A stretch of 64,000 bases of DNA. Origin: Candidatus Bathyarchaeota archaeon. GTDB lineage: Archaea; Thermoproteota; Bathyarchaeia; Bathyarchaeales; Bathycorpusculaceae. The stretch is taken from assembly GCA_963815095.1 (NCBI GenBank), contig CAWFFH010000003.1, positions 1,120,001 to 1,184,000 on the forward strand, given 5' to 3'. The notes beneath the pieces are model-generated. The model made no database searches. It was not told the DNA's origin and saw only the letters and a program-made list of their open reading frames with translations. Position numbers and translations under genes: made by a program. Position 1 is the stretch's first letter. Every line of letters starts with the position of its first letter. Below are positions 17,190-54,397 of the stretch, in pieces.

Positions 17190-18236
17190 CTAATTTTTTT
17201 TGAAAAGTAACTTTGCATTTTTCCATTGGTCTTTAGCTAGTGATATATTTCCGTATGGGCTTCCGTGAAGCGAATAGAATACGTAGCAGAGATAGTTGCA
17301 TTGAGTGCATTGGTGATAGTTTTTTCTTAATTGTTTGAATTCTGGACTTTTCCATTTTTGAGTTAAATCAAAGATTGACCCTGCAAAGTTGTGGCTGTGG
17401 CATCCTGCAACTCTGCCCAAATGGTCAATGACTAAAAACTGGTTTAGTGCTTGGCATTTCCACGATCTTTTGTTGTCTTCTTCGTAGATGCTTCGAAGTG
17501 TTTCAAGCAATTTATCGGTCATGAGAATTTTTTTGTTTTTCTTTTTCATCTCGATAAGCGAGTTGCAGAGGTTAACCATTGCTTTTTTGTCTGTTATTAC
17601 AAATTCGTCATTTGCTCTTCCCAGCTTAAACAACTGTTTGCTGTCAGCAGATGTATCGTATGAGTAGAGACTATACCAGACTGGAATACCTTTTTCGGTG
17701 AAGTGGTTTGTTAGGTCAACGATTTCATAAAGGTTCTTTTGAGAAATTGTTGGAGTTACACTAACTTTTATGCCTTCATTGTGGAGGGTTTCAACGGCTT
17801 GAGTTGCATTTTTCCAAGCGCCCGGAACTGATTTGATGTAATCGTTTTTTGCTTCATCCAGACTATCAATTGAGATTGCAACGAAATCCACTTTTCTTAA
17901 TGCATCAAGTTTTTTTGCAGCCATACTTCCATTATCATAAACAGTTGTAACAAACAATTTTGATGCATAATTGATTATTTCGCCGATGTCATCTCGAAGT
18001 AGCGGGTCTCCGCCTGAGAGGACAAGCTCAATTACACCAATTTTTTTTAGAATATCTAAGCCTTTCTTTATTTCGTCGGTTGCAAGTTCTCTTTGATCTT
18101 GTTCTTTCCAAACGGTGCATCCACGGCATTGATAGTTGCATTTTCTTGTTACTAGCCATTGTGCATGATGAGGTTTGCCAGAAGCAAGCGAACGCGCCGC
18201 AATTGATGCTGCTTTTTTGAAACCAGACGTCAACAA
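17190..18236 (-). CDS. Radical SAM protein with Twitch/SPASM-like C-terminus
   Basis: CNYQCRGC (CX3CX2C), SGGDPLLR, ISIDS, C-terminal C...GC...CxxCxxxC. Confidence 0.88.
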   Translation of the reverse strand: MLTSGFKKAASIAARSLASGKPHHAQWLVTRKCNYQCRGCTVWKEQDQRELATDEIKKGLDILKKIGVIELVLSGGDPLLRDDIGEIINYASKLFVTTVYDNGSMAAKKLDALRKVDFVAISIDSLDEAKNDYIKSVPGAWKNATQAVETLHNEGIKVSVTPTISQKNLYEIVDLTNHFTEKGIPVWYSLYSYDTSADSKQLFKLGRANDEFVITDKKAMVNLCNSLIEMKKKNKKILMTDKLLETLRSIYEEDNKRSWKCQALNQFLVIDHLGRVAGCHSHNFAGSIFDLTQKWKSPEFKQLRKNYHQCTQCNYLCYVFYSLHGSPYGNISLAKDQWKNAKLLFKKN

Positions 18237-18321: not shown

Positions 18322-19338
18322 TCATGTGCTTTGACGAGACAGTGCAATCCACAGATGGTCTGAGGTTGGTCTTGGTAATATCTCTGGCGAATCATCCTTG
18401 TGAATGATTATGCGTTTGTTTGGGGTTGGGTTGAATTCGCCGATGACATCAGCGTATATGTGTTCTTGGCCGAGTGAGTCGATAATTTTATTTGTGGCTT
18501 GTGGGTCGGCGGCGATAAGTAGTGCTCCTGAACTGATAAGTTGCAGTGGGTCAATTTCGTAAAACCTGCAGATTTTAGCGGTTTCAGGTTCAATAGTTAT
18601 TTTCTCTTCAAACACGCGTACGCCTAAGCCTGCTGCGTCCGCCATTTCGTGAATACCGTTTAAGATTCCGCCTTCAGTTGGGTCGTGCATGGCATGTACT
18701 CCACCTGCTCTGTAAGCGGTTAAGGCATCTTTTACGATGCTGATTTGTTTGTAGAAACCTTTAGCGCTATCCAACAAGGTGGAGGTGAAAGTTTTTGTGA
18801 GCTGCACTTCCCGGTCAGAAGCTAAGATAGCTGTGCCCTCAATTCCTGCGCTCTTCGTCAAAATTAGTTTGTCGCCTGCTTTGGTGCCAGCGGCAGTAAC
18901 GTATTTGCCTTTTTCGGTTAAACCCATGATGCAGCCCACCACAATCGGGTTCTCTAAGCCGGGTGTGGATTCGCAGTGTCCGCCCACAATAGCAATGCCC
19001 AACTCTTTTGCAGCTTTGTGCATTTGGGTACTGATGGTTTCAACGATTTTGCTGTCCGCGTTCTCTGGAAGCATTATGCATGAGAAGAAAAACGCGGGTT
19101 CCACGCCGAAAGTGGCAACATCGTTGGCGTTTACGTTTATGGCTTCCCATCCGACTCGCTCAACCGCACCAGTTATGGGGTCCATAGAGACTATAGCGTT
19201 CTTATTTCCAAAATCTAAAACGGCTCCGTCCACACCTGCGGCGGGTCCCAAAATAACTTCGCTACGGGCGGTGCCGAGGTTTTTGAAAACTACATCTTTT
19301 AGGATGTCTATGGGAATTTTTCCAGGTGGAAGCTTCAT
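18322..19338 (-). CDS. AIR synthase/PurM-HypE-ThiL fold ATP-binding protein
   Basis: MKLPPGK, SMDPIT, NANDVA, IVGGH, MHDPTEGG. Confidence 0.85.
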   Translation of the reverse strand: MKLPPGKIPIDILKDVVFKNLGTARSEVILGPAAGVDGAVLDFGNKNAIVSMDPITGAVERVGWEAINVNANDVATFGVEPAFFFSCIMLPENADSKIVETISTQMHKAAKELGIAIVGGHCESTPGLENPIVVGCIMGLTEKGKYVTAAGTKAGDKLILTKSAGIEGTAILASDREVQLTKTFTSTLLDSAKGFYKQISIVKDALTAYRAGGVHAMHDPTEGGILNGIHEMADAAGLGVRVFEEKITIEPETAKICRFYEIDPLQLISSGALLIAADPQATNKIIDSLGQEHIYADVIGEFNPTPNKRIIIHKDDSPEILPRPTSDHLWIALSRQST

Positions 19339-19351
19339 GCGTATTCCTCTG

Positions 19352-19879
19352 TTAAAGCTGGCTTTTAAGCTGTGGGAAAATACGCAGTACTGCGTGCATG
19401 ATTGGTACTGCAATTATCAGGCCAATGAGCATTTGAACGATGTTGAAAGGAACTTCTAGAATCGCCACAGTACTTCCTAAGATAAGTGTTTCATAAAGGA
19501 AGTATCCTAAAACCATCTCAAACCCTCCAATAACAATGGATATGGTGGCGCTTAAAGTGATGCTTTTAGTCTTCTGTACTATTTTCTTGTATAGGATGCC
19601 GACGAGTAAACCTTCAATTGCTTTTATAGTGAAGGTTCCGGGGGCATACTGCGGAGCTACAAGTGCATCTGCTATTGTTGCTCCTGCACCTGCTATGGCA
19701 CCTACAAAAGGCCCGAACAGCAATGCAGCTACGTAAATGAGAGTCTCTCCGAGATTGAAGTATCCACTGGTAGCAGGAATAGGAATCACAAACAGTAGTG
19801 TGGCTGCTGCGACTAGTGCTGCAAAGATTGCGGCTACTGCAATTTTGAATGGTGTGGTTGTGTTAAATTTGGATTGCAT
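19352..19879 (-). CDS. ECF transporter S component (HmpT/PdxU-like)
   Basis: AAIFAAL (AxxxA), IPIPATSGYFNLGE, LFGP..G, TFTIKAIEG; about 6 TM. Confidence 0.85.
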   Translation of the reverse strand: MQSKFNTTTPFKIAVAAIFAALVAAATLLFVIPIPATSGYFNLGETLIYVAALLFGPFVGAIAGAGATIADALVAPQYAPGTFTIKAIEGLLVGILYKKIVQKTKSITLSATISIVIGGFEMVLGYFLYETLILGSTVAILEVPFNIVQMLIGLIIAVPIMHAVLRIFPQLKSQL

Positions 19880-19893
19880 GTTTTTCGCCTTAG

Positions 19894-19926
19894 TATAGTT
19901 GTGACTATAGTATAGTTGCAGCTATA
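19894..19926. promoter_or_regulatory. Tandem palindromic operator TATAGT-N4-(A/G)CTATA x2, directly downstream of the minus-strand TATA box (19931-19938)
   Basis: TATAGTTGTGACTATA (19894-19909) and TATAGTTGCAGCTATA (19911-19926). Confidence 0.7.
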
Positions 19927-19952
19927 CCATCTAATAAATATTCCCAAAACAA

Positions 19953-21365
19953 TCACATCAGCAACTGAATCTCATCAAACGCCGCCAAAACTTTTTTCCC
20001 ACGCTCCGAAACACGGAAAAACTTCTTCCCACCAACCTCGTAACCAATCACCAACCCCTTATCTGACAGTTCGTTGAGGTGTTGGTAGATAGCGGCGCGC
20101 GTCATTATCTTGCCCAATTGTTTCCACAAATCATAACCATACGTATCTTTCTCATTGAGAATCTTGAGAATTTTCTGTTTCGTACTTACCGCGAGCCCTA
20201 AGCCTATCGTCTTCTGTTTCTTGTTCAAAGCTTGCAACACATCAGTGGCTTTAAGACCGCTCCCCGTAATTAGGCACACAACGCTACCGTCTTTTGAGAT
20301 TCTTTTTTCATCTACAAGCTTTTTCAATGCTGCGACAGTTATTGCACTGGCTGGTTCTGCAAACACGCCCTCTAGTTTTGCGATCTGGAGTTCTGCAATC
20401 AAAATGTCTTGATCGGACACGGTTAAGGAAAGCCCTCCTGACTCAGTTATTGCTTTGGAGGCAAGTTCGCATTGAAGTGGATTTCCTACGAGGATTGCAA
20501 GGGCTCGAGTGGATGGATTGCAAGTTTTATTATTTTCAGAACCTTTGGCCGCGTTCACTATAGCAGCACATCCGTCAGGTTGAACTCCAACCATCTTTGG
20601 CAAGGTCTTCGTTAAGCCGCGTTGTTTTAGTTCTTTGAATCCTTTCCAAACTGAGTAAATGGTGCCCCCGCTTCCCATGGAAACTATCATCCACTCGGGA
20701 ACCTCATATTGTTCCATAATTTCGAAAGAAATGGTTTTTTGGGCTTCAATCACCAGCGGGTTAAGTTCCGCAGTTGCTTGATACCAACCTGTTTCTTTTG
20801 CTACAGCCTTTGCTTTTTGGATTGAGTCGTCAATGATTTCGCCGTATTCCTCAATTATCGCATCGTAGGCAAGTATCTGGGCAAGTTTTCCCACATCCAC
20901 TTCTTTTGGAACTATTACATGACAATTTAATCCAGCTTTTGCCGAGTAAGCGGCCAGAGATGCTCCCATGTTGCCGTTAGTTGCGCATACCAGTGTATCT
21001 GAAAGGAGGTCTATAGCATTAGAGGTTAGGAGTGCAGCAGCCCGGTCTCGATAGGAGTTGGTTGGGTTTCGTGTTTCATCCTTCAAATAAAGTTTAGTTA
21101 ATCCCATTGTTTTCGCAAGTCTCTCAGCCTTATGAAGGGGTGTTCCACCCTCTCCTAAACTGACCATTTGCCTGACAGCAGGAAGCATTTGCCTATACCT
21201 CCAAAACCTAAGTGTTCCAGAAAACTTGACCGATCGTTTCTGGGGAACGTCTGCCGTGTACTCCAATATTTTACCGCATTTTTCGCAGTTACTTCTAAGT
21301 GGGTAAACTGGAAATTTGGTGCCACAATGACTGCATTGAAGGTTTTCGTTGGACTCTTGGAGCAT
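19953..21365 (-). CDS. Threonine synthase-like PLP-fold protein (Schiff-base Lys replaced by Arg) fused to C-terminal winged HTH
   Basis: N-terminal CxxC..CxxC; SLGEGGTPL; NPTNSYRDR versus canonical NPTGSFKDR; MGSGGT; EPASA; C-terminal YGYDLWK..AIYQHLNEL..GLV wHTH. Confidence 0.85.
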   Translation of the reverse strand: MLQESNENLQCSHCGTKFPVYPLRSNCEKCGKILEYTADVPQKRSVKFSGTLRFWRYRQMLPAVRQMVSLGEGGTPLHKAERLAKTMGLTKLYLKDETRNPTNSYRDRAAALLTSNAIDLLSDTLVCATNGNMGASLAAYSAKAGLNCHVIVPKEVDVGKLAQILAYDAIIEEYGEIIDDSIQKAKAVAKETGWYQATAELNPLVIEAQKTISFEIMEQYEVPEWMIVSMGSGGTIYSVWKGFKELKQRGLTKTLPKMVGVQPDGCAAIVNAAKGSENNKTCNPSTRALAILVGNPLQCELASKAITESGGLSLTVSDQDILIAELQIAKLEGVFAEPASAITVAALKKLVDEKRISKDGSVVCLITGSGLKATDVLQALNKKQKTIGLGLAVSTKQKILKILNEKDTYGYDLWKQLGKIMTRAAIYQHLNELSDKGLVIGYEVGGKKFFRVSERGKKVLAAFDEIQLLM

Positions 21366-50505: not shown

Positions 50506-50582
50506 TGGAGCCTCGAGCGGGCCTTGCTCCCGCGGCCTGCTGCTTACAAGGCAGCCGCTCTACTGGGCTGAGCTATCGAGGC
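50506..50582 (-). tRNA. tRNA-Thr(UGU), intronless, CCA encoded
   Basis: GCCTCGA/TCGAGGC acceptor, GCTC/GAGC D-stem, GCTGC-CTTGTAA-GCAGC anticodon arm, GCGGG/CCCGC T-stem. Confidence 0.88.

Positions 50583-51200: not shown

Positions 51201-54397
<3,197 letters not shown>

Follow-up and report, generated by a model that had tools for sequence, protein, structure and literature searches.

A threonine synthase-derived winged-helix protein as a probable regulator of vitamin B6 uptake in Bathyarchaeia

In the genome of a Candidatus Bathyarchaeota archaeon (an assembly of 2.69 Mb, rated 98.45% complete), a stretch of 64,000 nucleotides (G000:C3:1120001-1184000, hereafter the window) contains three closely packed open reading frames (ORFs) on the minus strand. 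In transcription order, these encode a protein resembling threonine synthase (ThrC) with a C-terminal DNA-binding domain, an S component of the energy-coupling factor (ECF) transporters, and an enzyme with the fold of aminoimidazole ribonucleotide (AIR) synthase. A first-pass annotation of the sequence proposed that the first protein is a transcription factor in which a dead pyridoxal 5′-phosphate (PLP) enzyme controls the uptake of vitamin B6, and that the genes for the S component and the AIR-synthase-fold protein come next on the same strand, an assignment that Pfam bears out. The three genes, in window coordinates, are:

19953-21365, minus strand: regulator gene, 470 aa, with a predicted ThrC-fold (fold-type II PLP) sensor and a C-terminal PadR-type winged helix (ORF, Pfam)
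19352-19879, minus strand: ECF S component of the HmpT/PdxU2 kind, 175 aa, the predicted B6 vitamer-binding subunit (PF07155)
18322-19338, minus strand: AIR-synthase-fold ATP-utilizing enzyme, 338 aa from ATG, a candidate B6 salvage enzyme (AIRS and AIRS_C)

The regulator and S genes are 73 nt apart. For the third gene, in which Pfam finds both the AIRS and AIRS_C domains, the ATG at 19338, 13 nt past the stop codon of the S gene, is preferred as the start over a TTG at 19413. Four features are distinguished within the regulator gene:

21276-21335, minus strand: N-terminal zinc-ribbon-like stretch with four Cys (Cys11, Cys14, Cys27, and Cys30; translation)
20262-21164, minus strand: PLP-fold domain, residues 68-368 (Pfam PF00291, PALP, E 1.3e-72)
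21048-21050, minus strand: codon CGA for Arg106, which replaces the Schiff-base Lys (by alignment with 2zsj and 2d1f)
19956-20183, minus strand: winged helix-turn-helix (wHTH) DNA-binding domain, residues 395-470 (Pfam PadR and structural model)

An AlphaFold model of the regulator, built on an alignment of 75 sequences, has a mean predicted local distance difference test (pLDDT) score of 92.1 and contains a ThrC-like body, with pLDDT falling below 50 only in a disordered linker at residues 380-392. The closest solved folds are threonine synthases (e.g., 2zsj, 6nmx, and 1v7c), which match the body only (approximately the first 350 residues) with TM-scores of 0.84-0.89 on the target and 0.62-0.66 on the query at 34-38% identity. 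The four-Cys stretch is an inheritance from archaeal-type ThrC rather than an addition, as the true ThrC of the genome also starts with C-x2-C...C-x2-C. Beyond the linker, the model forms a winged helix (helices at residues 395-405, 410-416, and 423-435, two strands, and a final helix at 454-469), and PadR (PF03551) matches residues 399-461 at 34.7 bits against a cut-off of 27, in line with the wHTH of about 75 aa that had been assigned to this end of the protein. The first-pass annotation also described the loss of the Lys that forms the Schiff base with PLP. Alignment confirms that N-P-T-G-S-F-K-D-R in the solved threonine synthases 2zsj and 2d1f corresponds to N-P-T-N-S-Y-R-D-R in the regulator, and the base reading gives CGA at this codon, while the MGSGGT, EPASA (here AEPASA), and ITGSGLK motifs said to be kept are all found in the translation. 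Among the matches listed at 73% identity or more, Arg occupies this position in 120/120 homologues (119 by motif, and one N-terminally cut protein reading ...SYRDR). The change from Lys to Arg is thus no sequencing slip, and both sequencing error and a pseudogene are ruled out as its origin.

The regulator scores 206 bits to the ThrC model TIGR00260, above the cut-off of 167.1, and therefore pipelines call the gene thrC. In fact, all homologues named in databases are called either threonine synthase or pyridoxal-phosphate dependent enzyme, as the first-pass annotation had foreseen. A second model, NF004170 (PRK05638), is also named threonine synthase, though regulator residues 9-463 match its positions 2-441 of 442 and it consequently spans the whole fusion; this name is probably wrong. 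Scoring 396 bits where the cut-off is 421, the regulator is a near relative of the NF004170 family, which is found above cut-off in none of 14 control genomes. Canonical thrC is encoded elsewhere in the genome (G000:C3:1039778-1040764), approximately 100 kb from the regulator gene. Its product of 416 aa carries N-P-T-G-S-F-K-D-R and scores 370 bits to TIGR00260, and the gene adjoins that of homoserine dehydrogenase, so the separate Lys-bearing thrC that the first-pass annotation called for is present. The regulator gene has no homoserine-pathway neighbours; its neighbours are transporter genes. In ThrC structures, the Arg of the N-S-x-N-P-x-R motif holds the substrate phosphate. The regulator has Val in this column, and an Arg is aligned there in none of the 75 family proteins with a wHTH, which mostly have Leu (19), Phe (18), Ser (9), or Thr (6). 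One cultured carrier of a regulator orthologue is Thermococcus chitonophagus.

The loss of Lys extends well beyond close relatives. In a search of 1.84 billion cluster representatives (clusters at 50% identity), 1271 match the query at E 1e-30 or better, a count that takes in true ThrCs. The 150 best matches were aligned, with three fragments and two rows without the Lys column set aside. The C-terminal helix is present in 75 representatives including the query, and Lys is absent from 73 of these, as against 0 of 68 rows without a wHTH, the genome's own ThrC included; loss of Lys is thus the rule among the fusion homologues, in agreement with the earlier expectation. The residues in its place are Leu (19), Arg (17), Ile (16), Val (6), Thr (5), Met (4), Phe (2), and one each of Ser, Ala, Asn, and Tyr. 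Four longer fusions of approximately 620 aa also keep Lys. Conservation reaches 90% or more in 33 columns of the Lys-bearing group, and of these the wHTH group fully loses only the Lys column and partly loses one Ser column. It keeps the pocket residues N132, G231, G233, T367, G368, G370, E337, D107, and R108, together with the Asn that follows Ser/Thr-Gly, the Gly-rich phosphate loop, and the Thr-Gly-x-Gly near the C-terminus. In a quick FastTree tree of the PLP domain (Lys column blanked, midpoint root), which shows clustering and not direction, all helix-bearing rows fall on one side of a single branch with support 84. Two clades are resolved among these rows, an Arg-rich one with 23 rows, the query included (support 95), and a hydrophobic-residue one with 51 rows (support 99), and the distribution of Lys versus non-Lys corresponds to three changes on the tree. 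By these sequence comparisons, the ThrC-wHTH fusion is a large archaeal family with a single origin.

It could be argued that such proteins are still enzymes, for example Lys-independent PLP enzymes with a DNA-binding tail, or decaying thrC paralogues with no regulatory role. The TIGR00260 cut-off is passed and two representatives keep Lys, as would fit this explanation. It is nonetheless highly improbable, given that eleven different residues replace Lys in a protein that stays conserved and full length in several phyla, that canonical thrC is present in the genome, and that a predicted operator co-occurs with the regulator gene (see below). The wHTH loci that keep Lys (L015, L016, L023, L024, L115, and L116) belong to some Bathyarchaeia and include two Asgard loci. 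These members could be covalent-PLP sensors like the MocR proteins of bacteria, or still enzymes.

Gene neighbourhoods were compared in the best 80 loci, one genome per species, which consist of 36 full fusions and 44 plain ThrC genes. The fusion loci come from Bathyarchaeia, Jordarchaeia, Promethearchaeia, Hermod- and Thorarchaeota, Thermococci, Nitrososphaerota, Methanomethylicota, and Desulfurococcales. The regulator has an S component resembling that of the window as its neighbour in 27 of the 36 fusion loci and in the window itself (28/37), against 0/44 plain ThrC loci, and the predicted linkage to ECF S genes thus holds across phyla. The linked pairs, found in Bathyarchaeia, Asgard lineages, Nitrososphaerota, and Desulfurococcales among other taxa, are co-directional, convergent, or divergent. 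An AIRS-fold gene is near the regulator in 9 of the 36 fusion loci as well as in the window. At L058, a 248-aa gene after an ATP-binding cassette (ABC) ATPase is without a Pfam match, so it is not named EcfT. Linkage to pdxST, likewise predicted, occurs in three genomes (G085, G022, and G082), where hydrophobic-clade regulators and pdxS-pdxT are transcribed divergently across gaps of 61, 151, and 36 nt, respectively; Pfam confirmation of the pair covers G085 only. Vitamin regulons are typically recognized by this pattern, in which one regulator family adjoins biosynthetic genes in some genomes and a transporter gene in other genomes.

The nature of these neighbours also bears on what the protein senses. 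In one alternative, PLP is a fixed non-covalent prosthetic group, and what is sensed is an amino acid or phospho-amino acid reacting with this PLP to an aldimine, like GABA (gamma-aminobutyric acid) in GabR, so that amino-acid status and not B6 status would be reported. Such a mechanism would suit a domain that stems from an amino-acid enzyme and retains nearly all conserved pocket positions, and bacterial MocR regulators work by a logic of this kind according to PMC5320631. It appears improbable here, as the genes conserved as targets are pdxS-pdxT and that of a vitamin-type ECF S component, with no amino-acid genes, and the phosphate-holding Arg of true ThrC has no aligned Arg in any regulator of the family.

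The S component is assigned to PF07155 with 103.5 bits against a cut-off of 26.7 (E 1.7e-29), the family described as that of RibU, PdxU, and PdxU2 (PMC9997740). Its sole match among solved chains is chain S of 4hzu, HmpT/PdxU2 of Lactobacillus brevis (E 1.4e-14 over 158 residues), from which pyridoxamine was the ligand extracted (PMC4860826). The same source lists Glu41, His84, Gln87, Tyr120, Asn140, and Gln143 as conserved pocket residues of HmpT. Four of these six (Glu, Tyr, Asn, and Gln) are identical in the window protein, and the pocket positions are invariant in 47 archaeal S proteins, save for Glu or Asp at the first. The first-pass annotation erred in tying the G-Y-x-N-L-G motif to the HmpT type, since solved HmpT reads G-I-V-T-L-C-E where the window protein reads G-Y-F-N-L-G-E. 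The motif is instead a feature of the archaeal family, as it is carried by the archaeal S proteins and missing from the HmpT chain. Many orthologous S genes encode approximately 250 aa rather than 175 (L003, L005, L007, L009, L010, L019, L031, L038, L052, and others); tblastn splits them into two pieces approximately 150-250 nt apart, which would indicate a mid-protein insertion absent from the window copy.

The genome lacks PdxS and PdxJ, holds only a weak generic amidotransferase match to the PdxT family (SNO), and has no PF08543 kinase (PdxK/PdxY/ThiD2-type) above cut-off, the best match reaching only 21.4 bits. The organism cannot make PLP and is a B6 auxotroph. Two EcfT genes are present elsewhere in the genome. 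In a scan of 121 Bathyarchaeia genomes, PdxS is found above cut-off in 20, and the S component is present in 92 of the 101 genomes without PdxS versus 8 of the 20 with it, counts that are non-independent because the family coded f11 gives 11 of the 20 PdxS-positive genomes. In addition, the regulator of the Arg/Lys clade (at least 470 bits in 38 genomes, with one truncated copy in addition) co-occurs with PdxS in only two genomes. No ThiC, ThiE (TMP-TENI), or ThiD-type kinase is found in the genome and a full ThiL is present; uptake of thiamine or of a phosphorylated precursor is probably needed as well.

These results raise the question of whether the same logic of regulator and importer serves another ligand, such as the thiamine precursor hydroxymethylpyrimidine or a small heterocycle, with the AIRS-fold enzyme being ThiL- or ThiD-like. 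HmpT was first named for hydroxymethylpyrimidine (PMC4860826), ThiC, ThiE, and a ThiD-type kinase are missing from the genome, and the AIRS-fold protein scores 91 bits to ThiL. A different ligand is unlikely, however, as pdxS-pdxT is adjoined by regulator members in three genomes and by the AIRS-fold gene in a fourth, the S component is complementary to PdxS in the class scan, the sensor retains a PLP pocket, and a full-scoring ThiL (256.7 bits) is encoded elsewhere.

The promoter region of the S gene contains three predicted elements:

19909-19928, either strand: predicted operator 1, a 20-bp palindrome of 9-2-9 form in the S promoter (weight matrix, 22.9 bits)
19892-19911, either strand: predicted operator 2, which shares 3 bp with operator 1 (weight matrix, 21.4 bits)
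19933-19940, minus strand: putative S promoter, an A/T-rich element that resembles a TATA box and lies 5 nt upstream of operator 1 (sequence)

The TATA-like element is assigned its function because the layout matches that of the usual archaeal promoter, and both predicted operators lie between it and the start codon of the S gene (19879). When the 160 nt past the regulator stop are scanned blind for their best 9-2-9 palindrome, 13 of 17 loci of the Arg clade yield the same motif. With a weight matrix built from the 11 best sites of orthologous loci, the window excluded, the top two matches in the 2.69-Mb genome are these two sites (C3:1139909, 22.9 bits, and C3:1139892, 21.4 bits). The third match, at 15.5 bits, lies below the maxima of 16.2 and 19.6 bits in the control, which consists of two mononucleotide shuffles of the largest contig; hence, nothing above noise points to further regulon members in this genome beyond the S promoter. 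Held-out S promoters of the Arg clade score 31.1, 27.4, 25.8, 22.9, 22.4, 22.2, and 19.7 bits (n = 7, including one with the S gene 2.8 kb away and one with the site 155 nt upstream of the called ORF). By comparison, S promoters of close relatives without the regulator score 12.1 and 8.7 bits, with the others at -2.7 bits or lower (n = 9), and the sites of 12.1 and 8.7 bits, which lie just upstream of S, may be operator remnants. Since sites score high with the regulator and low in the nine relatives without it, operator and regulator were gained or lost together. A candidate operator picked by eye upstream of the regulator gene was dropped, as orthologous loci do not support it.

Regulators of the hydrophobic clade are preceded by another conserved element, a TATA-like palindrome pair situated 10-30 nt ahead of the regulator start. 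It occurs upstream of the regulator in 13/25 cases under a strict 9-mer definition and in 18/25 under a loose one, compared to 10/262 and 20/262 other ORFs of the same loci, respectively, which include divergent partners sharing the spacer. The element also precedes regulator-unlinked S genes in four of five genomes (G002, G010, G034, and G091, not G004), and it precedes S in G074, where the regulator went undetected.

The 470-aa protein is therefore likely to be a transcription factor rather than a threonine synthase, acting as a PLP-responsive repressor of B6 uptake. This supports the reading of the first-pass annotation, with which the outcome of every computational test that it proposed agrees. 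Domain make-up, Lys loss, linkage to S and pdxST, co-occurrence of operator and regulator, and auxotrophy were computed, and from there we infer which ligand is bound, that a dimer binds the DNA, what sign the regulation has, and which reaction the enzyme catalyses. In the proposed mechanism, the ThrC-derived domain would keep its PLP pocket without the Lys for a covalent tie. Because the pocket is kept and Lys is lost, binding of PLP, or of a closely related B6 vitamer phosphate, would be reversible, so that the domain could report the level of this ligand. The ligand-bound dimer would then occupy the two overlapping 20-bp palindromes with its C-terminal PadR-type winged helices, covering the expected S transcription start and repressing the S gene. 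When B6 is low, the ligand would leave, easily so without a Schiff base, and importer and enzyme would be made. The S component would import a B6 vitamer via ECF energizing modules encoded elsewhere, and the AIRS-fold ATP enzyme would probably process this vitamer, most simply by phosphorylation, in an organism that would rely on B6 uptake as it is unable to make PLP. The same co-repressor logic would fit the members linked to pdxST.

The best reading, by analogy, is that of an archaeal, non-homologous counterpart of the bacterial pdxR-pdxKU system. The streptococcal pdxR-pdxKU locus comprises a regulator with a PLP-enzyme fold, a B6 kinase, and an ECF permease (PMC11619246). As in PdxR, a MocR protein, the window regulator combines a PLP-enzyme fold with a winged helix and is encoded beside an ECF-type permease and a putative counterpart of the B6 kinase and, in other genomes, beside pdxST (PMC11619246; PMC5320631). 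However, MocR proteins join an N-terminal GntR-type helix to a fold-type I aminotransferase domain, whereas Pfam finds only the fold-type II ThrC domain and the C-terminal PadR domain in the window regulator. Furthermore, characterized MocR regulators are known to keep the Lys that the window regulator lacks. The slot of the kinase also differs, being filled by an AIR-synthase-fold protein in the window and by ribokinase-fold PdxK in pdxR-pdxKU. HmpT/PdxU2 shares PF07155 and the pocket Glu, Tyr, Asn, and Gln with the window S component, which has Lys and Glu for its His84 and Gln87. Threonine synthase has the same fold as the regulator and, in archaea, the same zinc-ribbon start, and the regulator differs from it by the lost Lys and the extra wHTH. 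The archaeal vitamin regulators ThiR and RbkR also consist of a pathway enzyme domain and a helix-turn-helix, and control genes for synthesis or uptake. They share the design of an enzyme domain fused to a DNA-binding domain with the window regulator and differ from it in vitamin, folds, and pseudo-enzyme state.

A passage in PMC5320631 states that the MocR subfamily is absent from Archaea. A search of full-text literature, with subscription journals mostly outside its reach and supplements not covered, yields no description of a ThrC-wHTH regulator or a PLP-responsive archaeal regulator, and B6 regulation in Archaea appears to be undescribed so far. PLP-enzyme-derived B6 regulators are known in Bacteria, and the window regulator would be a first candidate for Archaea. 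Because the sources that name the family use threonine synthase or PLP-dependent enzyme, a B6 regulon would be overlooked in metabolic reconstructions of uncultured archaea, and thrC would be counted once too often. The family would further offer a natural case of a pseudo-enzyme becoming a sensor, with one catalytic residue gone and the cofactor pocket kept, as well as testable operators and a marker for B6 auxotrophy.

Several observations weigh against a PLP-responsive repressor of B6 uptake. Lys is kept in 6 of 54 tabulated loci, four of which adjoin an S gene; with the two Lys-keeping representatives out of 75, this implies that Lys loss is typical and not required for the role. No S gene is nearby in 9 of 36 wHTH loci, although four of these are at contig ends. 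The substrate of HmpT was assigned by mass spectrometry and simulation, and two of its six pocket residues differ in the window protein (His84 to Lys and Gln87 to Glu). Auxotrophy alone cannot separate B6 from thiamine precursors as the ligand, because ThiC, ThiE, and ThiD are missing too, and the class scan leans on one family for over half of its PdxS-positive genomes. With respect to the operators, the matrix control comprises only two shuffles, the Arg clade shows no operator ahead of the regulator gene itself, and repression as the sign of regulation would follow from operator position only. Regulation also seems dispensable, as nine close relatives (L117-L125, sharing genus or family codes with the window genome) retain the S and AIRS-fold genes without the regulator. 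In these genomes, the tetratricopeptide repeat (TPR), S, and AIRS-fold genes are present and the regulator gene is missing from between TPR and S, a pattern that suggests recent loss of the regulator in the relatives or its gain here. Finally, the case as a whole is computational.

The best family matches of the AIRS-fold protein are ThiL and HypE, with which it shares both AIRS domains. The chemistry known so far for the AIR-synthase fold is that of PurM, PurL, ThiL, SelD, and HypE. With 91.4 bits to ThiL (TIGR01379, cut-off 184.15) and 107.1 bits to HypE (TIGR02124, cut-off 251.6), and without the C-terminal Cys of the latter, the protein is neither of the two. The true ThiL (256.7 bits, G000:C3:232058-233095) and the true HypE (357.7 bits, ending in Cys) are encoded elsewhere in the genome. 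Pfam finds no ribokinase-fold Phos_pyr_kin domain (PF08543) in the protein, which is labelled in the protein database only as AIR synthase family protein. Orthologues at E 1e-40 or better exist in 110 of the 121 class genomes (15 of the 20 with PdxS and 95 of the 101 without), and a reading of coordinates places the AIRS-fold gene within 500 nt of S in 32 of the 121, across 12 family codes and in varied orientation. In G007, the AIRS-fold gene is directly upstream of pdxS-pdxT on the same strand.

Gene position and analogy make a B6 vitamer kinase the simplest guess for this enzyme, as a hypothesis. Because the gene is near-universal and PdxS-positive genomes are included among its carriers, a broader role is also allowed. 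A survey of the PLP pathway notes that alternative B6 kinases are still to be found (PMC9997740). It is possible, if rather doubtful, that many Archaea use the AIRS-fold protein as their missing B6 vitamer kinase, an alcohol kinase without orthology to PdxK, PdxY, or ThiD2, and that it completes a salvage regulon with the sensor and the S component. If so, the PLP supply of the many PdxS-less archaea would be explained by such a regulon, present in Bathyarchaeia, the Asgard lineages, Nitrososphaerota, and Thermococci, and the protein would be a candidate for the alternative B6 kinase sought in the survey (PMC9997740).

Other AIRS-like proteins are encoded in the same genome. A second S component (PF12822, E 6.1e-15) is followed by a distant AIRS-like protein of 263 aa (PF00586, 22 bits, below cut-off) at G000:C3:1335247-1336832 (L094), so the pairing of an S component with an AIRS-like enzyme occurs twice in the genome. 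A protein of 337 aa at G000:C3:119777-120790 (L093) has an N-terminal ribbon-helix-helix (PF01402, E 2.2e-8) and a short AIRS-like domain; this may be one more regulator built around an enzyme-like domain, and perhaps it partners the second pair. An unassigned AIRS-fold paralogue of 332 aa (G000:C3:103404-104402, L091) scores 86.9 bits to ThiL, 86.2 to SelD, and 82 to HypE, all below cut-off, and second matches resembling it at 30-35% identity are present in many class genomes. A PurM-like frame beside purL (G000:C3:795627-796376, L090) is short for PurM at 249 aa and may be truncated or frameshifted.

Next to the locus, a radical S-adenosylmethionine (SAM)/SPASM gene is located at 17190-18236 on the minus strand, 85 nt beyond the AIRS-fold gene, with the PTO1314 family as its closest NCBIfam match (108.8 bits, far below cut-off). 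Its membership in the operon is unproven, and relatives have one or two glycosyltransferase-like genes of the opposite strand in between. The gene, which is still near the locus in relatives, is probably a separate unit. Farther along the window, a complete archaeal 23S rRNA gene is present at 51285-54319 on the plus strand, with no 16S rRNA gene inside the 64 kb, and a tRNA-Thr (TGT) gene is found just upstream of it on the opposite strand (50506-50582, minus).

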